DNA of 64,000 nt from Amphiscolops sp. MND2022. Taxonomy: Eukaryota. Location of the stretch: contig OZ076409.1 in NCBI GenBank assembly GCA_964187785.1, forward strand, positions 40,426,001 to 40,490,000, given 5' to 3'. The position numbers were made by a program, and so were the translations under genes. Shown here piece by piece: positions 15,947-61,633 of the stretch; the stretch's first letter is position 1, and every line of letters starts with the position of its first letter. The notes beneath the pieces were generated by a model. The model saw only the letters and a list, made by a program, of their open reading frames with translations, had not been told where the DNA came from and ran no database searches.

Positions 15947-16129
15947 GTATGTTTTTGAATTGTTTGTACCTCGGCCAGCCAATTCGATCCAACTTTTGGG
16001 TTTTTCAGGTACTGTAAAAGAATACTTGACACTTTGAAGTCCTTCTCTAGTCGAACCTGCCGGAGAGTTCTCCATGTTGCATCCATGCATGCATTCTAAG
16101 TTTTTGATAAACATATAAAATTCTGATAG

Positions 16130-16591
16130 CACTCCTGGAGAAATTTTGTAGGATTACAATGCGGCGCACATTATTTCAAATAAAACTGAAAACAAATCCA
16201 CTTATTCACTGCTGCGATTGTAAGTTTCTCGCGTAAGTTTCTCAAAGTAAGTACCTTATGTAACCACTGTTACTCAAATAGCACGCTGAATATGACGCTA
16301 CATCGGAACTTATAATGTGATTGAAGTTCATTTGCATTGAAATCGCGGGAAACTTATTGGGGTCACAGCTGCTTTCAAAATTTGAATGAAATCTTGATGA
16401 AACCTGCAAAACGGCGCGTCTCGGAATTGCCACTATATTTAGGGTGCATTTTATAGGCAGCTTGATGAAATTAAATTGTTTCAGTGAAATTTTGATGCAT
16501 GGAAGTCTCTTTGAGAATTTAGAAAATCATGGAAAAATAGTTTGGTAAAAAACCTACAAAAACAAGTAAAAAGTTCAAGCAGTTCCAACCA
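16130..16591 (-). mobile_element. MITE family X, diverged partial copy, inverted relative to copy 1
   Basis: Ends AAGTTCAAGCAGTTCCAACCA; internal TAGCACGCTGAATATGACGCTAC. Confidence 0.7.
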
Positions 16592-17787
16592 CAGGCGAAA
16601 ACAACTTTGAAACTCTTGTAGTACTATAAACTTATGCTGCAATGTAAAGTAAGCCTGATCTTGTGCATTTTTGCTATAGAAAAGAACCGAGTAAAAACTG
16701 CATTTGTGAAAGGCTACTTTAAGGAACCCTTTTTGGGATGATTTTGATGTGGAAAAAATTGCCCTCAAAAAACTCTCCCATTCCTATCAGATGCAAACAA
16801 AGCAAGTGTTCGCAGCTAAAAGGTTCTCACCGATATCGTGGGCGCACTGGATTCTATTTCAGAGTGAATGAAAAATTTCGGAGTTGGCTAATGTGACTGA
16901 AACAAGTGAAAGTGAAATAAGCATAAGAAATAAATGTTTGGAATAATAAATACTTTGACATTTGTGCTACGCGCATTCTTACAGCCAAGAAATGATAGTT
17001 CCAAGCTTGTTTCACAGTCAACGTGCAAAAATTAAAACGTTTTGAGATACCATCGCAAAAATTGTGTTTTTTTTTCAAAAATGTCCTAAATTGTTCCTGA
17101 AAAGGACTAACTTTTATTAACACTTTTACGCCTGAACGGCTGTAGGAACTTTATCTTGTATTGCCCTTTGCGGCCGCGTGTAAAGGTTCAGAACGTTCTA
17201 GACAGCGCATTTACGAGATTGTGAAAAAACGTAACTTTTTGCATGAAATATGCTACCGCTAATTTTTGAGATTGCCATATGGGACCCTTCCGGTGGATTT
17301 TATTTAGAAAACCTTATATCAGACAAAATGTGAGAAATTTGAACAGTCTCAGAGTGCCAAAACATGTAAAAGCGGGACAATTAGGGATTTTTATCACCCT
17401 TTCTGTTTCAAATTTTCCAAAAAAATCAAGCTTTACTGTAATCAAAAATTTTTCGAAAAAAGTCAAGTATCAATGTGACAAAAATTCAAGTTGAAAAGTA
17501 CCAAGATAGCTGAAGTGGGTGTCCTTAGTATGTTTTCGAGGTTCGGCACGTCGGTTTTGTTTTGGACTAAATTCGGACATTTCGAGTATGTTTGAACATC
17601 CGTGAACAAAGAAGTGGACCATACGCGTCCAAAAAAATACACACTGTATGGCAACTTCTCAATGTTGAAAATGTAGTTCAAAATGCTAAATATATGCCCG
17701 GTTACATTGTTTGATTTGAGTTTTGGGCGAAAGGAACTCTTTTCAGCAAACTACAAACAAGTACTGGAAGCACCTGTCCTCACTCTA

Positions 17788-18338
17788 CCCTGGTTGGAAC
17801 TGCTTGAACTTTTTACAAGTTTTTGCAGGTTACCAAGCCTATTTTCTATGATTTTATAAAGTTCTCAAAAAAACGTCCAAACATTAAAACTTCACTGATT
17901 TGTCTAATTTTATCAAGGTGCCTATAAGATGCATCGTATATTTGGCGGAAATTCTGGGCCGCAAAGTTTTGCAGGTTTCACTACCACGCTGTTCTATTTT
18001 TGAAAGCAGCTGAGACCTTCATCAATTTTACCGCGATTTTATTGCGAATAAACTTCAGTCACATTATAAGTTCCAAAATTGCGTCCATTTCTGCGTGTTA
18101 TTTGACTAACGGTGATTACATAAGGTACTTACATAAAAAACTTACGCGTCAAAACAAAGTGATCGCGGCAGTGAAGAAGTGGAAATGTTATCAGTTTTAA
18201 TTGAAATAGTGGAGGCTGCATTATTATCTTACAAAATGTTTCCATGCAGGCTCCCGGAGTTTTCCATGTTTTGTAAAAAAAAATTGGCATGCATGTTTCC
18301 ATGCAGCATGTAAAATGTTCAAGCAATCTCGACTAGCG
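17788..18338 (+). mobile_element. MITE family X, full copy with TA flanks
   Basis: TA|CCCTGGTTGGAACTGCTTGAAC ... GTTCAAGCAATCTCGACTAGCG|TA. Confidence 0.85.
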
Positions 18339-20344
18339 TAATAACTTTCAGCTGCCAGTTTTTGATTTTTAAGTGTTTTGTTTTTCTTGAGAAAAAGAAA
18401 AGTGTTTTGTCGCTAAGCATCAAGAAATTGAAAGGGGACCCTTTGGAGAAACAATTTTTTTCGACAAAGTGTCTTTGTCGAAAAAATCTGAAAAAGAGGC
18501 TCCTTTAGTCTCGCCTGGTATTTTGTGTTACATTTAAAAAGTAAAACATGAAAAAGGGACCTTTTGCACTAAATTTCCGCTACACAAAAAACGCCGACTG
18601 AAAACATAAGAAAAACAGAAGAGAAGTTTTTTTTAGTTTTCGGTTTCGAAAAAAGTCGCACCGTGCCGAAAAACCTGAAGAGGGACCCTTTACTCTCTTG
18701 AAAGGTATTGCCCTGTCTGAAAAAAGGGTGAGCCTTCGATGAAAATTGAAAATGTTGAAAAATCGCATAGTGCAAAACGAGCCTTAAGGGGGAACACTTA
18801 GGCGTAAAGTTTGGAGGCGTAAAAAATGGACCATTCAGTGTGAAATCTGTGGTCTTACAAAAAAACTTTTGTTGTTGAAAATTTTGTTCAAAACTGTTTC
18901 TGTTTATTTGAATTAAAGTCCCAAAAAGTTTCAAGAAATTAGTTTTAAATGTAAAAACCGATTTTAGTTGCGCATCTAATCAGCGTCGAAAATTTACATC
19001 ATTTTAAATTGAGTTTCGATGAAAACGGTTTTCAGCTATCACATTGAAATCATTGCATTTTGTCCAATTTTTTAACGTTATTTTCGAAATAGAACACGAA
19101 ATGCCTGGGAGAAAACAAGAATTTAGGTTTTGCGGAAGAGCAGAGTTTTAAAGTACTCATTTTGATTGGACCTAGTTTTGAAACCTATATGCATGAATGT
19201 ATGAAATATTTTTCAGATCTGTTTCACCATGAATACTAAGTACTTGAAATTGAACGCATCCAAAACTTCCAACATGAAATACAAAACCATTCCATTTTTT
19301 GGCACCCTGAGACTTTCCTCCTTCTTCGGCTTTGTGAGAATTTTTTTCCGAAAATTTTTCATTGTCTCCAAAGGGTCAACTTTTTGATATTTTGAAACAG
19401 AATGGATGTTAAAAAACCCCAAAGGACCCCCGTTAACATTTTTCGGCACTATGAGACTGTTTAAAACTTTCATTTTTGATATTTGTTTTTCCCAATACCT
19501 GTTCAATATTTTTTCGATACTATCCCAATTTTTTATGTATTATCCGAACTATATTGCATTTTACTATAGAGGAGGTGGAGGTTCAAAAAGAAGTGCTCCC
19601 ATTTGTCCCAGCACGCTATATCCGAATTTCTGAAGCGTTTTCCGACGCAGGGTACCCTCTGGGTGTTTTGAAACTCTTTATGAGTTTTCCATTTAAAAAT
19701 GTCCTGAGCATATTTTAAAAACTGCGCGTTTTGAGCCTTAGGTATAGCGCCTTGTCTCGTTAAACAATTGAGGTCTGTACGTGTTTGATTTTTTTGCGTT
19801 CTATAATAGAAAATATGGCGTGCCACTGCGCTTCTAATAAGTTTTGCGAAGCTCAATAAAATATTTTCTTTTAATCAAAAGTATACGGATTTCGTAACAA
19901 TTGAAAACATTTTAAGTTTAGTAAGTTCTGTAAATTAATTAACATGCAATTTGAATTTTCAGACGTCATATAATGCTGTTGGGAGATGATACTTTCATTC
20001 CTTACGTATTTTTTACATGTGGAGGTAGGTTGGCCTTTGCAGCGTCTCCTTATATAGGATATCAAGAGTACCTGGATTTTTCTGCACTCAACTCCCTTTA
20101 TTTACCCTCAACTCGGGAACCCCATTTTGTACTTGAAAAAAATTCTCACACGACATGATATGCATGTAATAGAAAAATACAAACGATGTTGACAATTTTT
20201 TATTTGCAAAAGCTTAACTTTTTCTCTTATTAATAAGTTGTTTTCTTCTGATAAAAAGTTTCTTCAATTAGAGGGTGGGGTGCCTGGGTCGTTAAGAAAA
20301 ATATGGTTTTTTAAATTAAACTAATTAATTTTTATTTTTTTCAG

Positions 20345-31789: not shown

Positions 31790-31963
31790 ATTTTCACTTC
31801 CCGGTACCACCTCTTCATAGAAGCTACCGGACAATAGTTGCAGTCACGTTGTCAATTGATTATGAGCTTGAAGCTGCAGCTTCAAGCTCATAATCAATTG
31901 ACAACGTGACTGCAACTATTGTCCGGTAGCTTCTATGAAGAGGTGGTATCGGGAAGTGAAAAT
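31790..31963. repeat. 174-bp spacer-free palindrome
   Basis: Mirror axis 31876/31877 (GCTG|CAGC), one mismatch seen. Confidence 0.95.
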
Positions 31964-39663: not shown

Positions 39664-39779
39664 TAAAATCCAGTAAAGAAGATTTCTCCAAATTTATGAA
39701 TCCTGACAAGATTTTCAGGTGCACCTGAAAATCTTGTCAGGATTCATAAATTTGGAGAAATCTTCTTTACTGGATTTTA
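39664..39779. repeat. 116-bp perfect spacer-free palindrome
   Basis: Mirror axis 39721/39722 (GGTG|CACC), no mismatch seen. Confidence 0.95.
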
Positions 39780-42700: not shown

Positions 42701-43672
42701 CTGGAGGTCGGGTTCTGTTAAAACCCACCGATTTCCAAGTAACGGCATGTCGCTTACGCATTTAGGGACTGATTGAACTACAGTAGGCTACCGAAAGTTC
42801 AACGACAACAAAGTTTTTTTTCGATCAAGGCGGTAAACTCGAGACGCATTGTTTGAAGTTCTTCCCTCAAAACAATCGAACAAATCGATCAAATTAAAAC
42901 AGACAATTTATGGTAAAACATTTTTAGGAAATTCATTTTGCCACAAGGCGATGCTCTTTACAGAGCCCATGTTTACCGAAAAAAAGCTACAACGTTGAAT
43001 TGCTTCCAAACATCGAGTGGCACCCAGTATTTTTCAATTTAGCGGAAATTTTTGAAAATGTTAGTTTTGAAGTCGTCTAATTATATCGGCTCGGTCTGAC
43101 AACCTTGCCAGAACCAACTTACACGCCTTGGTTCAGTGATAAAAGCCGTTGAGAGATTATTCAAGCGTAATTTACAGGGGATTATTTGCAACGACTAAAA
43201 TTTTGATGATCTAAACTGTCAATTTATAGTTTTGAGTTTTCGAGTGTTTGGAGTTAAAAATTCACTTTTGGAAATGTTTCTGTAATGGTATGTCAGAGGT
43301 AAAATAGAGGACGCTAGGCGTATCTGTAGTGCTATGTTTCCGAGTCCATTTGAATAGAAAAATCAAGAAACATTTTTCAGATAGTGGTCAAAAGTGTGTG
43401 AAACTGCAAGAAAAGGAACATTGAACTCAGGGTTATTAAAATAGGGAGGGTATCCATGGGGAGGCCTGGATAAAGAAATGCTTGAAAAACAAACATCGAA
43501 TCATGGATATCTACAAAACTTGTTTTTACAACTGAAATATCGAGAACTATATGAAACTTTCGGTATGCGTAAAATTTTGGTATCCTAGTGTATAAGTATG
43601 AAGTAAAATTATTCAATTATATCTGCTTTTTTGTCCCAAATAATTAGATTCGGAACAGCAATCCCTATCTCA

Positions 43673-44223
43673 CCCTAGTCGAGATTGCTTTCACTTTTTA
43701 CATGCTGAATGGAAACATGCAGTCTATTTTTTTTAAAAAAAAACAGAAAAATCCCGGAAGCCTGCATGGAAACATTTTGTAGGATAACAATGCAGCCTCC
43801 ACTATTTCAATTAAAACTGATAACATTTCCACTTCTTCACTGCCGCGATCACTTTGTTTTGACGCGTAAGTTTCTCAAGAAAGTACCTTATGCAATCACC
43901 TTTAGTCAAGTAGCACGCTGAATATGACGCTACTTTGAAACTTACATTGTGACTAAAGTTTATTCGCATTAAATTCGCGGTAAACTTGATGAAGGTCTCA
44001 GCTGCTTTCAAAATTAGAACAGCGTCTTAATGAAACCTGCAAAACTTTGCGGCCCAGATTTTACGCCAAATATACGATGCATCTTATAGGCAGCTTGATA
44101 AAATTAAATCAAATCAGTGAAGTTTTATTGCATGGGCGTTTCTTTGAGAATTTTATAAAATCATGTAAAGTTAGCTTGGTAACCTACAAAACATGTAAAA
44201 AGTTCAAGCAGTTCCAACCAGGG
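43673..44223 (-). mobile_element. MITE family X, full copy with CA flanks
   Basis: CA|CCCTAGTCGAGATTGC ... CAAGCAGTTCCAACCAGGG|CA. Confidence 0.85.
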
Positions 44224-44423: not shown

Positions 44424-44972
44424 TATATATCGTAAAGCGACAATTCGTTCCAAGCGACGATTCGTCCCAAGCGACAATTCGTCCCAAATTCCAAAAAGCG
44501 ACAATTCGTGCCAATTATTAAAAGCTTTAATTTGTCCCCAATTTAATTGCCAATAAAGACCTTTGTAATAATGAATCCGGAAAGATTAAAATTAGAGGCA
44601 GGTGCCAACAATTAATTTTAACATTCCACGACTAGTACGTTAAAATGCAACATTTTCTAATTATTCTCACATGGTTAAATGAATCCATTTGTAGTTGGTT
44701 TGATTATTTCTTTCGTTTCAACCTTCAAAAGGTTGGTAATTAGCTGATCAATTAAACAATTGGGGACGAATTGTCGCTTTTTACAAATGGGACGAATTGT
44801 CGCCTTTTCAAAATGGGACGAATTGACGCTTGGGACGAATTGTCGCTTTTTGGAATTTGGGACGAATTGTCGCTTGGGACGAATTGTCGCTTGGGACGAA
44901 TTGTCGCTTGGGACGAATTGTCGCTTGGGACGAATTGTCGCTTGAGACGAATTGTCGCCCAACCGATATATA
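44424..44972. mobile_element. Fold-back-like element with inverted arrays of 17-bp GGGACGAATTGTCGCTT
   Basis: ~4 reverse copies at 44436-44512 and ~10 forward copies at 44763-44958, bounded by TATATATCG...CGATATATA. Confidence 0.75.
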
Positions 44973-46136
44973 CATATCCAGTGTGAGGAAAAAATATGTA
45001 TCACTTTTCTAAACTAGTCGTTTCATCTTTGTCTGCAGGGAAGAGAGTTTGTAGAAGTAAAATGGTGATTTTTTGTTGTTTTCAGTATAAGCTCCCTCGT
45101 GAAAATCAAAATAAAAGGTATTCGATGATTTCGGGACTCCACGACGACATCGATTTGATGTGGATTGAAATCATTTACTGTTTTTTTTTGTTTTTTTTTT
45201 AAAAAACTTTATTTTGAGTTTTTTGACATGTGTAAACATTGAAACTTTGATGAAGATATTTGCACCTCGAGACAGCTGTGTGAGACTATTTTCTATCACA
45301 AACTATAATTTCGTCATCCCGATAACCTTTTGTTACTGCGGAATCCGCTATCGATTGTATAAAATAGGCCAGTCCTCAATTGAGGATAAAACCACTGGTA
45401 AGGATATCGCTATATATAAAAAAGAAATGAAATACATGGAATCACATATATTTCAGCCGAGAGATACACAAAGTTTGACGCGTTGTGAAAATCAAAATGT
45501 TCGTAAGTATTCGGATTTGTGATGAATGTTGACCGGCCTTAGCCTTTATTCTTCTTTTCTGTAACTTTGACACGCTTTAACGTATCACCAATGTCTTCCT
45601 TTCTTTGAACTAACCTAGTTCGCTTCCACTGCTTGCCAGCAAGTTCCCATAACAAATGTATATGTTGTATATATTCTACATGAACACATTTCTTCCACAT
45701 GCACTTCTAATTGTCTATTTTTGGCATAAGAACCTACGGAAAAATAATCGGAAAAATTTACCTACGTAACACATTTGGAGTTGTTAAAGAGGTAAGAAGA
45801 GTGTTTTTAGTGCATGAGACCATTCAAAAACAATTATTCCTATAAGTAGATATAAACATCAGATAAAGAAGATTTTGTCATTCTGGTTAATTCGAAAGAA
45901 TAAAACTGTGAAAATCTTGAAATAACCATAGTTTGATCATTGTATGTCATAAATATGATTCTCATACTATTGTATTCATATAGAAATATGTTTTCCTTAT
46001 TATGATCTTTAAATGGAACACATGTTTTCCATACATGGAACTTTATGGATAATATTCCATAACTTACTTAATTTACACTGATACTAATGAAATTTTCGGC
46101 TACTTACAAGGTACTTTCAAAATTCAAGGTACCAAT

Positions 46137-47643
46137 TGTCCCAGGCGTCCGCCTGTGATGGCAACTTGTATTCTATTTGCCACAACTATCAAAAAGCCCT
46201 ACCCAACACGATCCATTTGAATTGAAACTTTTTAAATAAACTGCATTTGTATCTTAAAAGTCATGTAATTTATTTATTTTGAATATAGAATATCATGTAG
46301 TGATGATTTGATATTATGTAATACCGGCGCTAATTTGTACGTTATTAGTAAATTGGACACCAAGGCGTACAGGTAGAGGAAACGCGTTCAAATGTTTTCT
46401 CGCCTGTCGCCTTGGTCCGCCAGTCCAATTAACTCGCTAGCCAATCACAGTGCAGTACTTTCTTTATTCGGTGCTGTATTATGCTGCTAGATTAAAGGGA
46501 CTGAGTGGCCATATGCCGCCAGTCAATAATATCTCAGTCCACTCATGTCGAGTGGACGCTGAGGCCGTTTTGGAATTAAAGGCGCTTACTGGAAAGTACT
46601 ATGAATTGCGTAATAACCAGTGATTTACTGTCTTATTTAGTAAATTATTAGTCCTTAGAGGATATGTGATCTGCGTTAATTAGTACGCCATCAATGTATT
46701 TGATATAATTCATGTAATTAGAAAGTGTTGAAATACATGCAGTTTGTTGAATTCATACATGTATGTCGTTGCTTGTCCGCAAGGACCTTCAGTCTTCCCG
46801 CCACAATAACTGTCGGGGAAGACCCTTTGATCTATGATGATGTCACTAGTTAACCGTTGCTATATTTAGAACTGTTGCTATTTTTAGAAGCCCTTAAGGC
46901 TATTATTAGAAAATGATGATTAATATTATGCGTGTCATGTAGTTTGTTATGTATATATAGCGGAGACATTTAGTCCCGGGACACAAGAAGTTTGACCTTA
47001 CTACATGCTTGTTACTTGATACTGTGTAATCTCACACTGAATTTGCAAGCCTGAGAACTTAATTTAAATTCTTACCTCTTGCAACAATCTCTTATGCCTT
47101 CTACTAGACGTCAAAAAGCGAAAGCCAGGAAATCTAGGGAAATGGACATGATGTCCGACTTTGAAAACTTAGATGTAATGCTGGGAAATAGCAATAATAA
47201 TCCCATAGAAAGGGAATTAGCTGAAGCTATAGACCAATCATCGGCCCATGGGGACGCTGATACACACACGTACCCGGAGAATGAATATAGAGATTATCAA
47301 CATGAAAATGATGTACTGAGGCAAGATGAAATCAGGCACTCCTTTGAAACTTTCTCGAATGAGTTTAATCTCAGATTATCTCAAGAAATGGATTCTATGA
47401 TGTCAATGATGCATAATCAAATTAATAGGGCTGTCACAACAGCTATAAATGAAAGAGTCATCCCAGAAATCCAGAATATTGCAAACTCGATGTCCTCTAT
47501 GGGACACAGGGACACTGAGGCCAGTTCGTCCCCAAATAGTCAGGAAAACAGGGAAAGCGCACCCGGGCCTAAAATAAAAATTGCAAAGAAAGATTCAAGA
47601 TCTGTAGGTGACTTAAGAGATACCATGAGTCATGGTTCTTACA
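46137..47643 (+). repeat. Element B 5' LTR (1507 bp)
   Basis: Direct repeat offset 13,990 bp, no differences spotted by eye; TGTC...TACA; TATATATAG at ~46952. Confidence 0.97.
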
Positions 47644-48782
47644 TGGTGACAGGAGCTACCGACACCCAACCGCAAATTCCCGAATTTCTGACCGGACGAA
47701 TCCACTCAATCCCGAACCTAGAGAGACAACAATCTACACACAATATCTCTCTGGACACGACCCTGCCAGCCCCGGCCCCAGAGGCTCCTGAACCTCCTCA
47801 GGACCCGTTTAATAGATTAGCCGACGTATTGGTCAATTTGCAAAATAAACCGCAATCTATGACCATCAGACCCGTACAAACAACCCCGATGACATTTGAT
47901 GGGAAAAGTGAGAAATTTGAGCTCTTTGAGGACTTGTTCCATACGATGATCAAAATGCAGCCCACAATGACAGAACAAATGAAAATTAATCACTTTCATT
48001 CTTTGCTACGAAAGGGAGCATTACAGACATTCAGGAACATAAACTCAATCAACCGTCAAACTCTCGAGGACGTACTGGTCATATTCCGGAGGAAATATGT
48101 CAAACCGGAATCACAAGCAACAGCAAAGCATAAATGGCACCGATTAACCTTCGACCCAAGTACAATGAAACTACCAGACTTCTTGGAAGAACTGAACCAA
48201 GGTGCAGAAAAAGCTTTTGGGGAAAATGCTAAAAGCATGATCGACAGCTTGTTATACGCGAAATTGCCCCCAAAACTGAAACGATCTGTCAACATGGCCC
48301 GTCTGGAGAATGGCACGTATGAAGAAATAGTAGCTCATCTTGAAAGAGAACTGGAACTCAATGCATTAGAAGAGTCAGATGATCTACCAATGGCCACTAT
48401 GGCCTCGGCGTCCACGAGCCATAACAACTTATTGTCCAATGGTATCAACACAAATAAAGACGCCCAATGCTCATACTGCAAAGCGACAGGTCATTATTAC
48501 AAAAACTGCCCGAAACTCAAGAAGAAAAAGGAAATGGAGGACAAAGACGGTAAAAAACCTCAACGTCCAACTTACCCACCGTGTGACACATGTGGCAAAA
48601 AGAACCACCCAACCGAAAGATGCTGGCAAGGCGCTGGCGCCCACCTGCGACCCAAAAGGATGCAGACAGAACAAAATGACCGAAATGCTATAGACTCCGA
48701 AGGAAAGCCTAAAAAAGCAAATGACTCAGAAACGGCTACTTCAAGCCAATCCAATACTAAAAAACCTGATTCAAAAAACTAA
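47094..48782 (+). CDS. gag: Element B Gag (562 aa from first ATG), starting inside the LTR
   Basis: Capsid-like TFDGKSEKFELFEDLF region; two CCHC knuckles CSYCKATGHYYKNC and CDTCGKKNHPTERC. Confidence 0.9.
   Translation: MPSTRRQKAKARKSREMDMMSDFENLDVMLGNSNNNPIERELAEAIDQSSAHGDADTHTYPENEYRDYQHENDVLRQDEIRHSFETFSNEFNLRLSQEMDSMMSMMHNQINRAVTTAINERVIPEIQNIANSMSSMGHRDTEASSSPNSQENRESAPGPKIKIAKKDSRSVGDLRDTMSHGSYMVTGATDTQPQIPEFLTGRIHSIPNLERQQSTHNISLDTTLPAPAPEAPEPPQDPFNRLADVLVNLQNKPQSMTIRPVQTTPMTFDGKSEKFELFEDLFHTMIKMQPTMTEQMKINHFHSLLRKGALQTFRNINSINRQTLEDVLVIFRRKYVKPESQATAKHKWHRLTFDPSTMKLPDFLEELNQGAEKAFGENAKSMIDSLLYAKLPPKLKRSVNMARLENGTYEEIVAHLERELELNALEESDDLPMATMASASTSHNNLLSNGINTNKDAQCSYCKATGHYYKNCPKLKKKKEMEDKDGKKPQRPTYPPCDTCGKKNHPTERCWQGAGAHLRPKRMQTEQNDRNAIDSEGKPKKANDSETATSSQSNTKKPDSKN
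47644..47656 (+). promoter_or_regulatory. Primer-binding site of element B
   Basis: TGGTGACAGGAGC directly abutting the LTR-terminal CA; cognate tRNA not established (resembles Leu-type TGGTGTCAGGAG). Confidence 0.8.
48773..48779 (+). promoter_or_regulatory. -1 ribosomal frameshift slippery site A_AAA_AAC (gag-pol)
   Basis: Heptamer immediately before gag TAA; pol is in the -1 frame and is closed by TGA just upstream. Confidence 0.8.
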
Positions 48783-48784
48783 TT

Positions 48785-51700
48785 TTGCCACGACTCCAAA
48801 TACATGACTATATGTCGATTCGACAATACGTCATTTCAGATCCTCCAATAATCAAATACAGCCAAACAATCAAGGATACAAAAGGAATTCCCACTGTTGT
48901 CTGGCAGCAACAAATGGAAAAAGCCTGTATTCGAACTTATAAAATAGTACATAATGATCGCCCAGACCGATTTTACGAAATCGACTATACTAAAGACTTC
49001 GAGACTCAATTCCGTCCCTTACCCTTGATCGAAGATTATCACCCTCAATACCCCGATCCTGATTACGGCAAAGACCCGTATTGGGACGACGAACTCTACG
49101 ACAGACAAAAACTCCAGTTTAGACAAGACGAATATCCACCAACGGACGATGAGGATGATCCCCCGATAGTGGACAACAAACTATCCAGAGCCCTCATTGA
49201 ACTTTGGCAGCCAAATTCCGAAGCACTTTTAGAAGAAATAGAGGAAACTCAAGAACAAGAAGACTTTCAAGGCCCCGACAGCCTTTTAGACGAAACAGCC
49301 TTCTTGCACATTTTAGTGGAAAAACAAGGAGAACCGTCATACGTTCCCCTCTCCACCAACCTTGGCCTCAAAATCAAAAGGCGGATGCTATATTTCCCAA
49401 TGGACTTTGGAGAACTAACATTAGATGGTCTCATAGACACTGGGGCCCACTCCAGTGCGATACCAGAAGCTGACCTTAGGAAAATACGGCTACTTGCACC
49501 CCAATCAATAGTGAAAGAGGGTCCTGCCCCGTCATTCCAAATTATGGTCGCCAATGGAGACCTGGAAACTCCGAAGAGTACAGTAGAACTGAAGTTCGAA
49601 GTAGGGGACATAGAGTTCCACGAAATCTTCATAGTGATGGAAAAATTATCCAGCCCCATAATCGGACTTATGTTCTTACAAAGAAACCACACAGTCCTAG
49701 ATATGCGCCAAGGCATACTTAACTTTCCCTTCTTCTCGATGCAATTGAAAACAGCTGACCATAAGTACTCCAATGTGATGGAACCCATCCTCAACCCTGA
49801 GGATATAACGATTCCCCCAAATGGACGCACAATCATCCCTATCCAATCTCAAATTTATGCAGAAAACGCTGTCACTGGAATCTTACAACCCAGTGACCTT
49901 CTAAATGAAGAAAATGATATAACATTTTGTGCCGCCATAGTCACATTGGACGAAGGGACTACGCGGATCCATGTCAACAACTTCACTGATCAGCCCTTTA
50001 AACTCAAAAAAGGGATGCACATAGCGAATTTCTCTGTGATGACTCCAGAGCAAATGAAGCATGTTAGGCCAATAGACCCAGTGTCCACTTGGCACCTACT
50101 CAATGAAAATGAAGAAGACGCTATTTATTATATCAGCAGTCTTCTCAAAGCCAACAGGAATAATGACCAATACGAACAATACTGGTTTCCAACACCCGAA
50201 AACCCAGGGGACGAAGAGTCCCATACTCCAATACAAAAGAGAATTCTTAGAGAATTACGAAATCTGCAAGAAGCAGAAAAACTCAACCCACAAGACAATG
50301 AAGAATCTCGACAAAAATTCCTCAGTAACTTTGACTGGAAGGACTCAATGCTACAACAGCATGAAATCAAACAGATAGAAGCGCTATTAGTCGAATTTCA
50401 CGACATATTTGCCCGTCATAGGTTTGACATCGGTATGAATGAGGAGTTCACGGTCAAATTGACCCCGAAGGACGACTCTCCTGCCTACAGCCAGAGCTTA
50501 CCAACTCCGGTCAATTTAAAAGAGGACATACTGGTCGAATTAGCGTCACTACACAAATATGGAATTTTAACAACATTACCATTCTCAAAGTACGCTAGCC
50601 CTATCTTTGCACAAAAGAAGCCTAATGGGAAACTACGACTACTGGTAGACCTCAGGAAGATCAACAATCTTATTTCTGATGATTATATCAACAACAACCA
50701 TCCAGTCAGCACCTTAACGGACGCTGCTCAACATATGGCCGGAAAGAAACTTTTCTGTAAACTTGACTGTTCGCAAGCGTACCACTGCCTTCAAATGGCG
50801 GACCAACGGTCTATAGAGATGTTGGCCTTCAACTTTGCCAGCCGAACGTTCGCATATCGAAGATTGGCCCAAGGTCTCAGCAGAGCCTTATCGGCATTCT
50901 CCAGTTTTATGAAAGAATATTTGGACCGTGTCATCAAAGCCGATCAATGTGCCCAATACGTGGACGATATTGGCATTGCAGCCAACGACGCGGAGCATCT
51001 CATTAAAAATCTCAGAGCAACTTTCGAATGCATCCGAGAGGCTTGACTGAAATTAACGATGCATAAATGCCACTTTGGGGCAACGGAGATTGATTTCTTA
51101 GGAAGGACAATCACCCCTGAGGGTGTCAAGCCCCAGAAGGAACGAGTCACACAATTCCTAGAAAAAACGAAATTCCCAAAATCCAAAAAAGCCTTACAAC
51201 GTTACCTCGGATTCCTCAATTATTACAGAAACTACATACCGAGGTTATCAGAAAAATTAGTCCCTTTCTTTCAACTATTAAAGAAAGACGAAAAGGTCTT
51301 AGTCACAACGGAACTGATCGAACAATTCAACGAGATCAATAGAGATTTGGACAGATGCACCCAGCTAGCCCTTAGGCAGCCCTTGCCAAATCGACAGCTA
51401 GTCCTGATGACAGATGCTAGCTTTACAGCAGCCGGATATGCTATACTTACTGAAGATGATCCAAATCAGAAATTTACCTCAACCAAGAAATCCTATGCGC
51501 CTATTGCATATGGTTCAAAAACTTTTACTCCTTCACAACTTAAAATGTCAATTTATGCGAAGGAATTCTTAGCCATCTATTACGCCTTCAAAGAATTTGG
51601 ACATATATTCTGGGGCACACCTAAGCCGGTGATTATCCTCACAGATAACAAATCGGTCACAAGGTTCTTCCAGACTAAAATAATACCGCCGCCATTATGG

Positions 51701-53932
51701 AACGCGTGTGACTTTGTCATTCAGTTCAATTTCACTATAGCGCACATTCCAGGCAAAAACAACACAGCGGCGGACTATCTGTCCCGCATGGAAATGGACC
51801 CCAATGAAAAGTTAGTCCTAAAAATCCGAGCGGACGTTGAAACCCAACCCATTGAAGTCAATGTCCAATCAGCCGGCGTGTCTGAAGAAGAACAAGTGTT
51901 CTTTACCGAAGAAGACAATGAAACAGAAGAACAAATTTGGGAAAGGAAAAGACAATCAAAAGCAGGACTCAAGGTCGACGAGACCGTCATCCAAATAGAT
52001 ACTATATCTGAAAATGTAGTGGATGAAATTACCAATTTCACCCAGAAACTACGTAGAACCAACCAAATACTACTAGAACAATCCAAAGATCCGATTTTGC
52101 TTCATTTAAAAGCAAAAATTCAAAATGAAGAATACTCTGAGGAAATCCTTCAGCAGGACAGCCGGTATAAACATTATTTAAATAATTTAGACCGTATAGT
52201 CCTCAAGGACGAAATAGTGACCCGACAGTATTACGACGAAACGGGACAAATCAAATACCACCAAATCTTACTACCAAAGCACCTGTTGAAAGAACTACTG
52301 CAAGCAATACATGGCACGGCACATCGACATCCTGGCATCTCTAAAATGCTGCAAGAGATCCGCCAAAAATATTACTACCCTGGCATAGCAAAATACGTTA
52401 AAAAATGGGTAGAGGGATGCGAAACGTGCGCTAGAGACAAACGAGTCCCAAATAATACAATTACACCAGAATTGTTGAACTTGCCCGAATGGGACCTTGG
52501 TCCAGAAGATGCCATGCAGATAGACTTATTACCAAACTTACCGACTAGTGGCGGATACCAGACGGTGATGACAGCTATAGATGTATTCTCAAGGTACTTA
52601 TTCGCCTACCCGCTAATTGAGGCAACAGCCACGAATGTAGCCAAGGTGATAATTGATATGATGACGAAACATTCATATTTACCAACAACTCTCATCACAG
52701 ACAAAGGGTCCGCATTTACATCGACCATCATAGCTGAGATAACTCAAATTTTGGGTATAACACTCAAATGTGCTACTACAAAGCACCCGCAAACAATTGG
52801 CAAACTCGAAAGGACGCATGCCTCACTCAAAACAAATTTGAAAATGGCCTCAGGGGAATATCGACGCCAATGGCATAAATATTTACCATTAGCAGTACTC
52901 AACTACAATACCACATACCACTCTAGTATTGGATGCGAACCGAGTAAAGTCTTCCACGGCCGGATTCCCTATAACGTCCTAGACCACAAATTGGGAAATA
53001 ACCCCAATAAAAATTTTTTGCCAACTACAGAATTTGCGGAGGAAGTACAGCAGAGGACACAAATCCTCATAGATCAAACGAAAAAGAACATCATGCAGTC
53101 TTATTTGAAATATAAGGACTATTACGACCGAAAGGCAAAGGCTGCCCCGCTTAAAGAAAAGGACTATTGTTTTGTTCTACAACCTAAAGCAGACAGTCAA
53201 GCATCAAAAATTCCATTCAAGGAATACAGGTGGATTGGACCATTCGTCATTCAAAAAGTACTGTCCAACGACAATTATATTGTCCGTCGTCTAAATACAA
53301 ATAAAACTCAAATACTTCATCGCATTAGACTAAAGAAATTCGTCCCGAATGCCCCTTTAGAGGACAAATACGATGGAGAAAAACTACAACCCGACAACGA
53401 GATAGTAATCCCGCAAGACGATTTGTACACTATCTCATGGGAAGTAGACTTTGAGTACGACTTATTTGAACCGAGGAAGGAAAATTGGACAGACGTGGCC
53501 ACACGCCGGCCGACGGACGCCGAGTCCACTAATACGAACAATGACGTTACCGACGAGGAAAGCACTATCAATGAAAGCTGCAGCGAGCGCACGACAAGAA
53601 ATTACGTCACCGAGAACGAACGCGTCAGCAATGAAAGTTACAATGAGCGTACGACAGAATATGACGTTACCGAGGACGAAATATCCCCGAGAAAGAATAA
53701 TAGCAGTGACGAACCGTCCCCCCCGACTCAAACGTCACAGCGCACTGAGAATGAAAATGACGTCACTAATGATTTACAAGATACGGAAAACGTTTCAAAC
53801 AAAGGCGCAGATATTACCGTGCCCGGAACATCAAAAAATGGAAATTCAAATGAAAATTCGAGCCCTAGAGGAGGGAAATACAATCTTCGACCTAACCCTA
53901 CCCCCAACTTTACTGATGAATACAGATACTAG
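48785..53932 (+). CDS. pol: Element B Pol (PR-RT-RNaseH-IN) with one in-frame TGA at 51044-51046
   Basis: LIDTGAHSS; YVDD; MTDASF; HGTAHRH...CETC; QIDLL/TDKGS/KLERTH; terminal KYNLRPNP; REA*LKL where REAGLKL is expected. Confidence 0.93.
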
Positions 53933-54168: not shown

Positions 54169-57100
54169 TTAAGATTTAGAAGTTCCAGGAGCGTTTGCAT
54201 CACTGGACTTTGCGGCTTCAGTCTCACCAGCTGCCCGAAAGCCAACTTTCTTGCCTTTACCAGGGGACAGCTTACGTGGTTTCCCCCCTTCTTTGGACGA
54301 GGAATTGGAAGCGGACTCGATGTCAGGACGGACACTCTTGCTCAGAGCCTTGTAGACCGCAATTAAAGTTTTATGCAAATTAGCCTTGCCGAAACTGTCT
54401 ACGTGTGACCAAGGGTCTCCTGGGACGTTGCCAATACTGAATCGGAACTCCAGATCTTTGAAGGTGCCCAGGGAAGCTTCTGTAGTGCACACAGCCACTG
54501 AATTAGCCACATTAGCTAGGTAAGACTGTGCAGGCATGATGACATCGAAAAGTCTACTTCGGGGATCATTACAGTCAACTCCAGAGAATTTGATGGCTGG
54601 AAGCTCTGGCAACTTAGAAGTCAGGCACAGACAACTCAACTGGAAGATGTAGAACAGATGTTTCCGCAACTTCAATTCAGGCATACCAATCAGAAAGGCT
54701 ACCATGTCGGTGAAGACCTCTGGGGTATCCTTGACCCCAGAGTTGGCTTGGCGGAAGAACTCCACGAAATCGATGTACTCGTCTCGGGCATCAGTCTCTG
54801 GGGAATTCTCTAACCAGCCCCGCAAACTAAAGGATCTGTACAGAGCGGAGAAACAGTATGTGGCTTGCTCAAGCGGCAGACTCAGGAGGGCTACTGGATC
54901 GAAACTGCCCAGACCTCTTACGATACCGGCATTCAAGCTAATGTCGGCCAGGAAGACTTTCAAAAGGTGGACGAGGTAACCTCGGGCCTTGGTGGCGAAA
55001 TCGTCCCGAAGGGCCTCAGCTGCTGTCTCCATCTCTTCAGACGTCAGTTGCTTCTCGCTATAAATTCTCCTGACGCGAGCATGGCATGCGGCATCCAAAT
55101 TTTCTTTGAGCTTCAAGCGACTCAAGAAATCTCGATTAGACAGTTGTCGCCAATTCTGTCCTTGCAAATCTCCCAGCGACTTCCAGTCCAGAATATCAGG
55201 CACGTGTCTGGGAAGTAGTGCTCGACCTGCCAACTTGCGAATGAAAGTATGGAACTCTCGGAAGGTGTAGAAGCCACTATCCCTTCGTTGCGCAAACTGA
55301 CTCTCGAAGCTCTTGGTGTCTGAAAAACAAAACATTACCATCCTGAAGGGTCTTTATGAAACCATTAGACCTAGCATGTCAATCTACTATATCTAGCATG
55401 AGCCTCAAATAGTGGTAAGACAAACTGGGACCATGAGGTCCGTAGACAAGAGAAAAACAATATACTAACAATCGCGGACAATTCGTGCGAAGAACTCCAG
55501 CTTGATGGTGAAGAAATCATCAGCTATGATTTCCCACTCGAGGCTTTGGGGCTTGTTTTTGACCCCCTGGTGGACCTGTGGTGGTGCTATCTTCGTCAGA
55601 TGTTGGTGCACAGACTTCCAGTTCGCAATTAGTTCCGAACATATGGCTGGTACAGCGGCAATCTCCAGGTGATAGGTAGTCATCGCCTACAATCAACATG
55701 CTTATTGGAGGCAATTCAAAACTGGACCTACAGTCTTACGGACAGTGACCTTACCTTGACGAATTCTGGCATCAGGGCGGCCCAGGACTGTCCACCGCAA
55801 CCGTCCAGGAAGGTAATCAGAAACTTCAACTGAGAGAAGAAGCTGATACTGCCAAACACGCTGCCCCATCGTTCATGCATCAGGTCTGGCAGACAAAGAG
55901 CATCAAATCGGAAAGGGTACTCAATCCCTTTTTGGAAGAGGCAAGAACGTTCAAGAAGAGGAATCACCTCTGCAGGACACCCGGACACGCTCACAATCTG
56001 AGGTTGCGTTGATAGGACGGACAAGAGGCGGGAAAGTACCAACAGGAAACCAGCCGCAGGCTCTGAAGCAGTCCGGTATCGTAGCAAACGGACGACATTG
56101 AGGGATTCGCCCTTCCAGAACCGGATCGAGATGAAGCTGTAGGTGCCTCGCATTTCAAACTCCAGAGAGTACTGACCCGTGACACTGACTTGATAGGCGA
56201 TGTCAGCGATGCCGCAGAGGAAGATGTGATGAAAGATCGTCTAAAACAAAATCAACCAGGATGAAAATGAGTTGGGTCTACGTTAGGACTAAAGGACCCT
56301 GAGGCTAGAAACCGCCGATACTTACTGTCAATTTAGAGGAGCCCCAATCGTAAGGAGAGAACAGACTCTGATGATTGGTAACAGTGCCAATCTGTGACCA
56401 TAGCGACTCAAGGACGTTTAGATCTCCACAACGGGGAGCGAAGAGAGCAACCATGGAGATTTGAACACACAGTCTGATCTCCTCCTGCCCAGCGATGGAG
56501 CCAAGGCCAGCCATATGGTCCTCGTAGAAGGGGTTACTGCTGCCAGTTTCGACCAAAGGGACTTGCATAAAGAAAGGCTTCTCTTTCTCAAGCTCCAAGG
56601 GGGTCAACAATTGGCCCTTCTTCCCCCTGACTTCGTACACAGTCCGGCCAGTCACCTTGTCCTTCTTCCTTAGGTGCTCATATCTCCAGCGCTGGTCTTT
56701 GCGAAAATGCGACTCACACTGGAAATGGCGGACAATCTCCCGGGCTCCTTTTGAGAAAATGGAAACATTCGTCTTACATATCTGGCAGTAGAACTTATGT
56801 TTGTTGTGTTCTGGATCAAGGGGGCCAGTGACGAATGTCCGAGTCCACTGAATCCCTTTGAAATACGCTTCTTTCATTACTTTGCCTGTGCGTCCTGGAA
56901 GCCGACGACGTTTGCGGGGTGGACTTGAGGCAGAAGCTTGGTCAGCGGTCAATGTGGCTAAAGGCTCATAGTCAGTTGAGCAGAATCCTGGACTAGGGAC
57001 TTGCTGTGCGGATGAAGGGCCAGGTGTTGATGTCGAACCTTGATCTGGAGGACTAGGGGGAGGATTGATGCTCAGATCCTTGCTGGTTCTCTGAGAGTTG

Positions 57101-58101
57101 ATGACGAACTCATCTTCCGAACTGAGGGCTCCGCTAGTGTACCCCTCAGTCCCAACGTCACTGTCTTCCGCTCCTGATCCAAGGCTGCCGCCCTGCTTAC
57201 GGAAGATCTTGATTCGCTGCTTCCCGGATCCTTGAGGAGTACCTTGGGAGCGAATTCCTGCCCGGATCGCTTCTTCCAGCATGTTCTTCATTTGATGAAG
57301 GGAAGAAGTAATGGTCTCCGTGGAGACGGCACGCAAGATGGAATGGACTTGCCCCTGATTGAAGGCTACAGTCGCATGGCCTACCGGGAGGATACATGGG
57401 TTGGTCTCATTGAAATGCTGATTTATCAGCGTTCTAGCAGAGGCAGATAAAGGTCTGGTTGGACTGAAGAGCTTCGGAGAAGACGTGCCAGGTATCTCAG
57501 CCGAGGTGGATGGCTTGACATTCTCATGGGTCTCAGTCCCAGTGGAGCTTAGCGCATCCAGTGCAATCACGAAGGGTGGTTCCTTGATGGTCTCAGCACC
57601 GGAACTATCGAGTATTTCTTCAGTGTCGCTGGTATCAGTTTGGAAGTAATCCGCCTTGGTGACGGAAAATCCAGCTTCACTGGCAGCATCACCGCCTCGC
57701 TCAATCTCAGCCTCAGGAGACTCCTTGTCTTGCGACCCAGTCGTGACCTGGGGAATTGGTTCCGACTCAGAAGTTTTCTCAGCGATTGACTTTGGTGCAT
57801 TGTCTACAATGGCAGATGTAGTAGGGGGCAAGAAGGAGATGTCAAGTCCAAGGCCCTGGCAACCCAAAGTCTGCAATTGACGGTCAATGTAAGCGGAAAT
57901 GCTTTCATCCGTAGAAGGGCTTGGGGTCGGAGCAGTCTTATCAGGATCATCTCCTGGCGGCACAAGTTGCGTGGACTCAGGGTCAACAGGGATCGAAGTG
58001 GCCTGACTAGTACCAGCTTCTTTGGGGATGGCAACTTCTTCTTCAATCATAGATGTAGTAGCAGTGGCAGGAACAATATCGTTTTGCTCTTCGGACGACA
58101 T
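54169..58101 (-). CDS. Antisense spliced accessory gene of element B, ~1209 aa; exons 58101-56326, 56240-55755, 55686-55470, 55319-54169; BED-like zinc finger, hAT-transposase-like body
   Basis: Three GT-AG introns (85, 68, 150 nt) join four ORF-track ORFs in frame; FYCQICKTNVSIFSKGAREIVRHFQCESH finger; PPRKRRR NLS-like; - strand AATAAA at ~53991-53986. Confidence 0.85.
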
Positions 58102-59378
58102 GTCTAAACAGAAAGGGATAAACTCAAGCGGATAACTTCCTGAGAAAGAGTCCATTACCGCGTTAAAAAATCTTCCGGAAGTAGATTTTTCGAACTCAAG
58201 TGAATACTTGTGTTATGGGACAGGAAGTACGTGAATGAAATGAGAGCCCTGATCAAGCCTCAGATTAATTCAATACTAAAATAGAAACAAAACCTGAAAA
58301 GCTACTGACCTGTTTGAATGCAAAGAAGGATGTCTTGAGAAGGGAGTACTGTGTACAGTTAGACTGGTGGTCACTAAATTGGAAGCTGAGCGATCAGTAG
58401 AGAAGGATGACGAAGCTGGACTGGTGACAATACAGCAGCAGTTGTAGGGAGAAGACAAATTCTTCTTTGATGAAGGACAAGAAAGATTGCTGAAGACGAA
58501 TTAGCAAAAGGGACTCAGTGTCGATTGTCCTAGGATGACCCGAGAAATCCACAGAAGACGTAATTGGAAGAAATTACGAATGAATACTTTAAATGAATAC
58601 TGAGTAAATACGACTAGAAGACTAAAAGACTAGAGATGATTAAATACTGGACGATAATACAAAGAGTAGTTGGAAAGAATTTGAAAATAACGAATTGAAA
58701 AGAGAATTGGCAATGTGACAAGATGTCAAAGTTGGAGTTCGTGGCTATACAGTTTGGTGTCAAATTTGTTATTATTTACAATTTACAGTGTTATGTGGAT
58801 AGAGTCTGCCAGCGATATCTACAATTGCTTATTTATTTCGAAAATGTACCGTTTTACAAATTATTTCATAATTTTCCAAGATTTTATTAATTTCAAGGTC
58901 ATTTTACATTAGTCCTTATATGGATTTACGGCCTTGGGGGGCCATTTTTATTCAGGAAAGATCGTGCTGCATTCCTATTGGCTAATCAAGATTGCTGGGG
59001 GACGGCGTGGCTGACTGCCATAGCTTACCCTCTTGAAACCTTTAAGTGCTCGATGAGTGTTAATAAACACTTGAAGCGGCACTCTTAATATGGAGGTGTT
59101 GACAGAACTGATGTAAGCCAACAAGGCAGTTGTCGGCGTTATCAAAGAAGGCAAGACGGAAAGATGAAAGATATTACCAAGATGGAATTTGTTATTGAAA
59201 ATTTATCCTTCTCGGGAGACGTAAAACCCCGGGAAACCGAGACGAAAACTCCCGCTAGTCGACGGAAGGGAAGACCGCCATTGTTCTACAATCATTCACA
59301 ACAACCAGTTGGCTATTTGAAATAAAACTCAAAAACTTCTCAAAAGAAATCTCTCCGAAAATTGCAAAGAAAATAATT

Positions 59379-60215
59379 ATGGACAGATTCCTATCAAGCC
59401 ATTTCGACTCAGAGTCCCCCGAGTACTTCCCGGAAGACTTTCTGGGTGCAGCCCCGGGAGACGGGATAATTTGTATCTCCAGTGATGACGAAATGGATCG
59501 TGTGAGCAGCGCTTCAGTAGACGACCTGGAATCTCTATCCGACGACGATGAAGTGGCCTTACTGGCGGAATGTGTTGAAAGACAAATGGAAATCCCATTA
59601 GCTTCAGGAAACATTCCGGTGCCCTCCTGTTCAAACCAACAGGGAGAAGATCACTACGGGACCCCCAGGCTCTCATACATCCCTGGGCCAATGTTCGATG
59701 CTGGATACTTTGATCTAGGAATGGGGAGAGGGCCAGTCGCGAGAGACACAAGGCTCAAAAACGATCATCCGATTAATATTTGCAGCCAATTAATTCCAAT
59801 GGTGGACACGCCAATGTCCCCCCCTGCCGTAGATAAATACCCTACAGACGACTGGAGAGCAATGGTAGAGCCCTCTACTAGTAACAAGCAACAATGCCCA
59901 AGTGGAATACACTTTAAAGGCCCTAGCGTCGACAATCCCTACATCACGGGCTGCACAGACTGCCTCATCTGCGGAAAATCTGTGGAACAGATTCAAGATG
60001 AAGCAGTGATTGACTACATGCACAAGACGGCTGTCCGAGGGGAGTCCCCAGAACAATTCAATGCCAGAAGACTAGCGTTCTTAGAAGGAATGAAGGTGGG
60101 CTGCTTCATGCTAATCCCAGGGGGAGTGTCCCAGGCGTCCGCCTGTGATGGCAACTTGTATTCTATTTGCCACAACTATCAAAAAGCCCTACCCAACACG
60201 ATCCATTTGAATTGA
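59379..60215 (+). CDS. Element B second accessory ORF, 278 aa, unknown function; acidic N-terminus and Cys-rich C-terminus; ends inside 3' LTR
   Basis: ATG-initiated intact ORF; IICISSDDE; CTDCLICGK; AATAAA ~10 nt after the stop. Confidence 0.75.
   Translation: MDRFLSSHFDSESPEYFPEDFLGAAPGDGIICISSDDEMDRVSSASVDDLESLSDDDEVALLAECVERQMEIPLASGNIPVPSCSNQQGEDHYGTPRLSYIPGPMFDAGYFDLGMGRGPVARDTRLKNDHPINICSQLIPMVDTPMSPPAVDKYPTDDWRAMVEPSTSNKQQCPSGIHFKGPSVDNPYITGCTDCLICGKSVEQIQDEAVIDYMHKTAVRGESPEQFNARRLAFLEGMKVGCFMLIPGGVSQASACDGNLYSICHNYQKALPNTIHLN
60119..60126 (+). promoter_or_regulatory. Polypurine tract of element B
   Basis: AGGGGGAG immediately before TGTC of the 3' LTR. Confidence 0.8.
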
Positions 60216-61633
60216 AACTTTTTAAATAAACTGCATTTGTATCTTAAAAGTCATGTAATTTATTTATTTTGAATATAGAATATCATGTAGTGATGATTTG
60301 ATATTATGTAATACCGGCGCTAATTTGTACGTTATTAGTAAATTGGACACCAAGGCGTACAGGTAGAGGAAACGCGTTCAAATGTTTTCTCGCCTGTCGC
60401 CTTGGTCCGCCAGTCCAATTAACTCGCTAGCCAATCACAGTGCAGTACTTTCTTTATTCGGTGCTGTATTATGCTGCTAGATTAAAGGGACTGAGTGGCC
60501 ATATGCCGCCAGTCAATAATATCTCAGTCCACTCATGTCGAGTGGACGCTGAGGCCGTTTTGGAATTAAAGGCGCTTACTGGAAAGTACTATGAATTGCG
60601 TAATAACCAGTGATTTACTGTCTTATTTAGTAAATTATTAGTCCTTAGAGGATATGTGATCTGCGTTAATTAGTACGCCATCAATGTATTTGATATAATT
60701 CATGTAATTAGAAAGTGTTGAAATACATGCAGTTTGTTGAATTCATACATGTATGTCGTTGCTTGTCCGCAAGGACCTTCAGTCTTCCCGCCACAATAAC
60801 TGTCGGGGAAGACCCTTTGATCTATGATGATGTCACTAGTTAACCGTTGCTATATTTAGAACTGTTGCTATTTTTAGAAGCCCTTAAGGCTATTATTAGA
60901 AAATGATGATTAATATTATGCGTGTCATGTAGTTTGTTATGTATATATAGCGGAGACATTTAGTCCCGGGACACAAGAAGTTTGACCTTACTACATGCTT
61001 GTTACTTGATACTGTGTAATCTCACACTGAATTTGCAAGCCTGAGAACTTAATTTAAATTCTTACCTCTTGCAACAATCTCTTATGCCTTCTACTAGACG
61101 TCAAAAAGCGAAAGCCAGGAAATCTAGGGAAATGGACATGATGTCCGACTTTGAAAACTTAGATGTAATGCTGGGAAATAGCAATAATAATCCCATAGAA
61201 AGGGAATTAGCTGAAGCTATAGACCAATCATCGGCCCATGGGGACGCTGATACACACACGTACCCGGAGAATGAATATAGAGATTATCAACATGAAAATG
61301 ATGTACTGAGGCAAGATGAAATCAGGCACTCCTTTGAAACTTTCTCGAATGAGTTTAATCTCAGATTATCTCAAGAAATGGATTCTATGATGTCAATGAT
61401 GCATAATCAAATTAATAGGGCTGTCACAACAGCTATAAATGAAAGAGTCATCCCAGAAATCCAGAATATTGCAAACTCGATGTCCTCTATGGGACACAGG
61501 GACACTGAGGCCAGTTCGTCCCCAAATAGTCAGGAAAACAGGGAAAGCGCACCCGGGCCTAAAATAAAAATTGCAAAGAAAGATTCAAGATCTGTAGGTG
61601 ACTTAAGAGATACCATGAGTCATGGTTCTTACA
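60127..61633 (+). repeat. Element B 3' LTR (1507 bp)
   Basis: Copy of 46137-47643, followed by TSD CCAAT. Confidence 0.97.

Follow-up and report, generated by a model that had tools for sequence, protein, structure and literature searches.

An accessory gene that runs into the 3' LTR of a Ty3/gypsy element, and a predicted hairpin where primer site and codons meet

What is a 278-codon reading frame doing across the purine-rich primer (PPT) of an LTR retrotransposon and inside its 3' LTR? This frame, here called ORF4, lies in a 64,000-nt stretch of DNA from Amphiscolops sp. MND2022 (the window). Its position raises three questions: whether it is a gene, what its product might do, and how the same nucleotides can serve as codons, primer site, and LTR end. 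The element that carries ORF4 is 15.5 kb in size and has the following parts.

46137..47643, forward strand: 5' LTR, with the target duplication CCAAT directly before it
47094..48782, forward strand: gag, its initial 550 nt within the 5' LTR, continuing across the PBS
47644..47655, forward strand: PBS, complement of the 3' end of host tRNA-Leu(CAG)
48812..53932, forward strand: pol (protease, dUTPase, RT, RNase H, integrase)
54169..58155, reverse strand: antisense gene, in ORF pieces 56305-58155 and 54169-55341
59379..60215, forward strand: ORF4, a 278-aa accessory gene of no named family (from the ORF listing, genome matches, and omega)
60127..61633, forward strand: 3' LTR, 1,507 nt

Both LTRs are 1,507 nt long and 100% identical, with TG...CA termini and a 5-bp target duplication, CCAAT. 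The paired LTRs with their short duplication, a PBS complementary to a tRNA, and a pol that encodes protease, dUTPase (between protease and RT), RT, RNase H, and integrase in that order are all of the Ty3/gypsy type. The tRNA-Leu(CAG) assignment reflects an ARAGORN call at one of three loci. Because gag ends at 48782 and pol is in a shifted frame, a programmed frameshift is likely between them (48782-48812). The window copy has an in-frame stop within the RT, and all 28 of the other stretches with an RT match are open at that point.

Other repeats were encountered in the window and in the wider genome. The tRNA-Leu 3' end motif has 807 matches across the genome, and a large tandem array with a period of ~296 nt carries it at G000:C8:35589244-35652442. 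Same-orientation ORF4 matches lie ~14.1 kb apart at G000:C9:14561427-14604464 and C11:38657358-38686704, which are whole-element tandem arrays, and C1 holds shorter junction arrays with a spacing of 1.5-2.6 kb. Within the window, a second and unrelated Ty3/gypsy pol (RT, RNase H, integrase) occupies 270-6712 on the forward strand as a 1,779-aa ORF with ~950 extra residues past the integrase core. There are also three near-perfect palindromes (11219-11562, 31790-31963, and 39664-39779, with arms of 172, 87, and 58 nt), a 17-nt tandem repeat with an inverted copy (44435-44975), and a dispersed MITE-like repeat family (15398-18342 and 43672-44220).

A preliminary description made from the window sequence reported a 278-aa sense ORF across the PPT, with AGGGGGAG (60119-60126) inside codons for P-G-G-V and the last 89 nt inside the 3' LTR. 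All of this is borne out. The end point it gave, 60230, takes in an AATAAA at 60225-60230; ORF4 itself stops at 60215. It also held that both LTR ends are protein-coding, and indeed gag at the 5' LTR and ORF4 at the 3' LTR are each under protein-level selection. In the window copy and in all 15 others examined, gag begins within the LTR and continues over the PBS; its pN/pS ranges from 0.10 to 0.33 over seven pairs. The gag gene of Ty1 likewise begins within the LTR.

The preliminary description staked its reading of ORF4 on conservation in other copies, and such conservation is extensive. Thirty elements were hand-picked from plus-strand matches to cover the subfamilies; one of them (L090) has an internal stop and was excluded from ORF counts. 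The window copy and the 29 others all cross the boundary in phase, down to ~30% identity: the start of the LTR always meets a Val codon at the same codon position, with 86-92 nt of ORF beyond it. For 24 of the 30 elements the fetched stretch includes a 5' LTR that starts at the same TG, and in 23 cases the 5-bp duplication is exact; the remaining six have no such 5' LTR in range. The overlap of ORF4 with the LTR appears to be an old, locked arrangement.

We are nearly certain that ORF4 is a real gene. A codon model fitted to 24 copies yields an omega of 0.097 overall, 0.069 for the N-terminus, and 0.12 for LTR codons 259-278, which lie beyond the hairpin described below. For codons 253-278, pooled pairs that are sequence-disjoint though not fully independent give a pS of 0.54 versus a pN of 0.10 (p 8e-21). 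Indels in the LTR-encoded tail are codon-sized, the position of the stop is kept despite variation among TAA, TAG, and TGA, and DNA divergence begins directly past it. At 32 conserved positions away from the junction, silent sites vary freely, with a top base at 47% versus 83% inside it.

Searches of the genome with ORF4 and six relatives gave 137-150 scored matches each among the matches listed, overlapping between queries, and 131 of the best 139 scored matches, a sample biased to top scorers, have no internal stop. Relatives also exist beyond the host genome. Among 1.84 billion representatives there are 256 matches at E 0.001, two relatives (P0065 and P0185) have a best match to the host genome of only 41-47%, and two metagenome contigs carry an ORF4 gene with the same junction sequence (homologues L154 and L155). 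A single match in viral_contigs (L153) runs antisense to a phage gene and is spurious. The relatives that were looked up are all unnamed ENA proteins, none with a named family, and a search for fused forms of 500-2,000 aa, which is weak evidence, found none. One could still propose that the frame arose incidentally from conserved cis-acting DNA and encodes no functional protein, since codons 249-257 are constrained at the DNA level. With silent sites free outside the junction, an omega near 0.1, and frames that stay open to ~30% identity and in other genomes, this explanation is extremely improbable.

Reading through the PPT into U3 is already known, and the overlap is less surprising than first thought, the junction more so. 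The obvious comparison is Nef, a lentiviral protein of an env-bearing virus that acts at membranes and carries a myristoylated N-terminal Gly. ORF4 lacks this Gly, since it begins Met-Asp (Met-Asp/Asn/Ser/Ala in relatives), and it has no sequence match to Nef and no match to the Nef core fold when a weak model is used as the query. As the cited text presents it, HIV-1 nef reads through the PPT into U3 (PMC11076291); ORF4 does likewise, covering only 89 nt of U3. HIV keeps a 15-nt PPT. In plant CRM group A chromoviruses, according to the cited section, it is the integrase tail of the polyprotein that reads into U3 (PMC3059260). In contrast, the LTR-encoded tail described here belongs to a separate gene rather than to an integrase C-terminus, which sets the element apart from group A: ORF4 has its own ATG at 59379, ~5.4 kb past the pol stop at 53932 and behind the antisense gene.

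The protein itself offers a few clues regarding function.

59466..59492, forward strand: SIM-like motif, residues 30-38, a hydrophobic core followed by Ser-Ser and an acidic run (25/30 copies)
59781..59972, forward strand: candidate zinc ligands C135, H178, C195, and C198 (92%, 90%, 96%, and 97% in alignment A3)
59805..59825, forward strand: [DE][ST]PxSPP motif, residues 143-149 (29/30 copies)
59982..60098, forward strand: predicted helical hairpin, residues 202-240 (block pLDDT ~80-96 in both models)

The peptide IICISSDDE had been singled out as resembling a SUMO-interacting motif (SIM), and it is present and conserved at residues 30-38. SIMs are defined, in the portion of the source cited here, by a four-residue core with at least three V/I/L and by flanking Ser and acidic residues (PMC12751080), and IICI-SSDDE has both the core and the flanks. 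The pattern occurs in 25 of 30 copies versus 0.5% of shuffles, a contrast that is inflated because the pattern was written after the alignment was seen. It also occurs in the metagenome homologues L154 and L155. One clade, comprising the other five of the 30 copies, has no canonical core and carries a different acidic-hydrophobic motif instead. The same source portion describes SIMs as loose motifs (PMC12751080), and the acidic-hydrophobic stretch could equally be an activation domain or a motif for another ligand. The acidic N-terminus is probably disordered, with a pLDDT below 50 at residues 29-34 in a model that is weak overall. Further along, the [DE][ST]PxSPP motif, whose S147, P148, and P149 are each 94% conserved, offers candidate sites for proline-directed phosphorylation.

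The preliminary description also listed a Cys-rich C-terminal end as zinc-binding. Each listed residue is present, and yet as a family-wide zinc site the set does not hold up: only the CxxC pair and C256 (100%) are conserved, and over 65-68 aligned rows C192 is kept in 26%, C242 in 9%, C264 in 8%, and H265 in 18%. Because the C256 codon (TGY) is fully dictated by the stem of the hairpin, its invariance is no evidence for zinc binding. The four conserved Cys/His residues that include the CxxC pair (C135, H178, C195, and C198, at 90-97%) are candidate zinc ligands. Pfam zf_PCFS4 matches ORF4 at an E of 0.09 only, and a zinc homodimer model scored 0.28 versus a mark of 0.32, which weighs on neither side. 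AlphaFold2 is confident only at residues 202-240, and both models are poor (pTM 0.27 and 0.39).

The view that ORF4 is not env-like and has no TM segment stands, given a best 19-residue Kyte-Doolittle mean of 1.44; on this measure, which is hydropathy only, five proteins reach 0.96-1.44. No usable match emerged from Pfam (ORF4 plus 85 alignment members), NCBIfam (six proteins), PDB sequences searched with a profile, or two runs against the ESM Atlas. With the weak model as query, Foldseek returned no PDB or BFVD match at E 0.001, and the best VIA-align score, a Z of 5.0 on the helical hairpin, is no fold match. Fold rows for adenovirus E1A had E values above 1 and are not evidence. ORF4 contains no recognizable DNA-binding domain, and no basic nuclear localization signal is obvious by eye. 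All 30 copies are strongly negative, with net charges of -12 to -29, as would be expected of an adaptor or activator more than of a protein that binds nucleic acid.

Our leading, still tentative, interpretation is that ORF4 is a nuclear SUMO-binding adaptor that favors expression of the element against SUMO-dependent silencing. Its acidic, disordered N-terminus would dock on SUMO-modified chromatin proteins following phosphorylation, the small zinc/helical domain would bind a second partner, and the adaptor would thereby keep the promoter of the element active despite silencing. The host has a gene, split by an intron and with a weak PF11976 match, that we take to be SUMO-like from its SUMO features. 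In the mouse, SUMO takes part in ERV silencing according to the cited passages (PMC7472088), and we apply this to the host by analogy. An accessory protein that counters host silencing has a precedent in VANC of VANDAL transposons, as far as the cited account goes (PMC5735166). This is the role proposed for ORF4, and the likeness is one of role, with no homology expected: VANC belongs to plant DNA transposons and binds DNA sequence-specifically, whereas ORF4 belongs to an animal Ty3/gypsy element.

Additional ORFs are common in LTR retrotransposons of plants and rotifers. Those described in the cited sections are env-like, GDSL, DEDDy, or Transposase_28 proteins; none matches ORF4, and none is described there as entering the LTR (PMC7264820, PMC5408684, PMC6431247). 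The open-licence literature yielded no description of the ORF4 protein family or of a retrotransposon-encoded SIM factor. If the proposed role is true, ORF4 would represent a retrotransposon-encoded SUMO-pathway antagonist, a class that we did not find in print in that literature. For most extra ORFs in LTR retrotransposons no function has been assigned; the short conserved motif of ORF4 makes the link to SUMO testable with peptides.

How ORF4 might be expressed, and with which neighbor, can be considered from the noncoding sequence on either side of it.

59305..59365, forward strand: conserved noncoding motifs before the ORF4 ATG (Inr-like YYAGTY; AAAATWGC)
60225..60230, forward strand: AATAAA in U3, unconserved
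60942..60949, forward strand: TATA-like box, ~816 nt into the LTR, aligned in 15/15 rows

An AATAAA had been noted in the LTR just past the stop. It is there, but a part as the poly(A) signal of ORF4 finds no support in the other copies, since an AATAAA lies within 200 nt past the stop in only five of 30 (2/20 plus 3/10). The TATA-like box is likely the main promoter, and its position ~816 nt into the LTR places the ORF4 tail and the AATAAA within U3. The ORF4 message would then be either a dedicated or a spliced mRNA, with its 3' end at the normal poly(A) site of the LTR and not at this AATAAA. Of the motifs upstream of the ATG, both chosen from the alignment, YYAGTY occurs in 22 of 30 copies versus 5.5 expected and AAAATWGC in 27 of 30 versus 0.6 expected; they are a possible internal promoter or splice acceptor. 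A small upstream ORF with an AT-hook-like peptide was dismissed because its frame is not kept across subfamilies. Upstream of the TATA-like box, at 60830-60900 in U3, repeated CTA(A/T)4TAG-type motifs, which we presume to be MEF2-like, and CCAAT boxes are conserved across subfamilies. These elements of U3 may reflect tissue-specific expression.

The antisense gene, which has a weak C2H2-like match, lies beside ORF4 in 28 of 30 elements. The spacer between the two is a candidate bidirectional promoter: at 58739-58812 and 58942-58981 it contains invariant TCGTGGC and CTGCCAG (16/16 rows) along with a GCCATTTT/CCAAT pair. This arrangement brings to mind another function, in which ORF4 would be the partner of the antisense protein or of integrase and would link a subunit that binds DNA with chromatin marked by SUMO, serving to control the promoter or to select target sites. 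Divergent genes around a 1.2-kb spacer with conserved motifs, their co-occurrence (28 of 30 elements), and the lack of a recognizable DNA-binding domain in ORF4 would all suit such a partnership. However, the two genes reassort independently, as the identity patterns of two elements reveal. Relative to the window, L070 has an antisense gene that is 96-97% identical and an ORF4 that is 72-76% identical, and L064 has the reverse. We regard a partnership of this kind as unlikely. L064 also shares 98% identity with the window over the LTR codons and 73% over U3. Co-inheritance of ORF4 with U3 was not seen in a noisy test that used fixed windows, and such loose linkage argues against an activator specific for LTR sequence.

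Returning to the junction, two features overlap the codons of ORF4 there.

60119..60126, forward strand: 8-nt PPT within ORF4 codons (ACCCGCAG instead in one clade)
60127..60150, forward strand: predicted 10-bp hairpin, LTR bases 1-24, overlapping codons 250-258

Neither the LTR-start hairpin nor the lack of a PPT in roughly half of the family was noticed in the preliminary description. The stem begins at the very first base of the LTR. Pairing is retained in 97% of 230 cells (23 distinct rows), versus 23-65% in slid controls. The loop holds the most variable columns, G-U replaces G-C in several cases, and a double compensatory change is seen in one copy. In codons 249-255 silent positions are nearly frozen save in the loop, and they are free elsewhere. 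Among distant proteins V253 occurs only alongside T255 (5/5, probably one lineage), and by codons this pair of replacements turns a C-G pair into U-A at the cost of two amino-acid changes. Folding z-scores are modest, from -2.3 to +0.6 (-0.29 for the window copy, which has one mismatch), L072 prefers a different fold, and 27 of 500 column shuffles paired at least as well as the real alignment, a borderline result. Because the z-scores are modest and the shuffles borderline, support for the hairpin rests on its register, the frozen silent sites, and the two compensatory events. A DNA palindrome recognized by a dimer would leave much the same pattern. Rfam gave no match, and the open-licence literature no description of an LTR-start hairpin with PPT loss.

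The G-U pairs, as in an RNA structure, are what one might expect if ORF4 were an export factor for unspliced genomic RNA, resembling CERV or Rev and possibly recognizing the hairpin in its own tail. CERV of the C. elegans element Cer1 is, in the cited passages, spliced to gag exons and exports genomic RNA (PMC10309623). By the same description CERV and ORF4 are alike as non-env accessory proteins of animal Ty3/gypsy elements, encoded at the env position, with conserved Cys and an S-P site; those passages mention neither LTR overlap nor a SIM for CERV, and the two are set side by side by description only (PMC10309623). However, CERV is much larger and shares exons with gag, ORF4 is strongly acidic and lacks an arginine-rich motif, and the exact register of the hairpin with the LTR end points to reverse transcription or integration. 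An export function is accordingly unlikely in our judgment.

Ty3 provides the closest reference for the primer site. Its plus-strand primer also abuts U3 and is cut base-precisely, and the cited pages describe a 12-nt all-purine tract in which hybrid geometry contributes to recognition (PMC5371799). Compared with that tract, the ORF4 family has 6-8 purines or ACCCGCAG, followed by the hairpin. The clade that includes the window has a conventional PPT, with an 8-nt purine run in the window and 6-8 nt in 25 of 30 copies. The ACCCGCAG clade does not: its purine run is 2 nt long in five of five copies and at 12 of 12 further loci, the latter picked by that same pattern. An exact-pattern scan of the genome found 5,457 LTR starts, 1,884 of them after G[GC]AG, and of these 897, about half, have pyrimidine-rich sequence at the PPT position; these exact patterns overlook variants, also count tandem copies, and pick up a few 5' LTRs by chance.

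All five PPT-less elements have exact target duplications and LTRs that are 98-100% identical, which implies recent and accurate transposition. A single clade unites them in the trees of pol (support 100/100; three rows, two elements being omitted for lack of a long open match) and of ORF4 (100/97), where under a midpoint root they are nested among purine-type rows. A single loss of the PPT is therefore the likely history. Two substitutes for the missing tract were considered and rejected. A mirror-image tRNA site has no CCA end at the junction on inspection, and purine runs of 13-14 nt found ~133 nt upstream at eight of the 12 PPT-less loci are not the end-setting primer because the 5' LTR starts at TG. 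The PPT-less junctions (L108-L116 and L141-L152) resemble a 3' splice acceptor, with a pyrimidine run and CAG at the LTR start, probably as a by-product of codons for F-L-F-x-T-P-A.

Might ORF4 itself compensate? As a packaged protein it could aid reverse transcription, guiding RNase H to the correct plus-strand primer in elements whose PPT is weak or missing. In favor of this, ORF4 overlaps the primer site, and the clade with a 2-nt purine run still makes exact ends. Yet a gene need not act where it lies, ORF4 is just as well conserved in PPT-bearing clades, and the SIM-like and S-P motifs point to nuclear regulation, all of which leaves a role in reverse transcription improbable. The SUMO-binding adaptor remains our preferred reading of the protein, and for the primer site the hairpin, or the G/C-rich octamer before it, probably sets the plus-strand start in place of purine content. 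Codons 249-257 double as LTR end and predicted hairpin. The combined proposition, that a hairpin-defined primer has replaced the PPT in an element with both LTR ends coding, such that 24 bases act as integrase end, RNA structure, and codons at once, and that the overlapping gene is a SUMO-pathway antagonist, is one that we offer as a doubtful conjecture.

The PPT is regarded as universal and is relied on by annotation tools. If this conjecture is true, purines at the primer site became dispensable in about half of the copies of this family while the ends stayed exact. That a young, abundant clade forms its ends exactly despite a purine run of 2 nt means that some other signal sets the plus-strand start. 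With natural PPT-bearing and PPT-less variants in one family, these elements are well suited to a clean experiment on RNase H.
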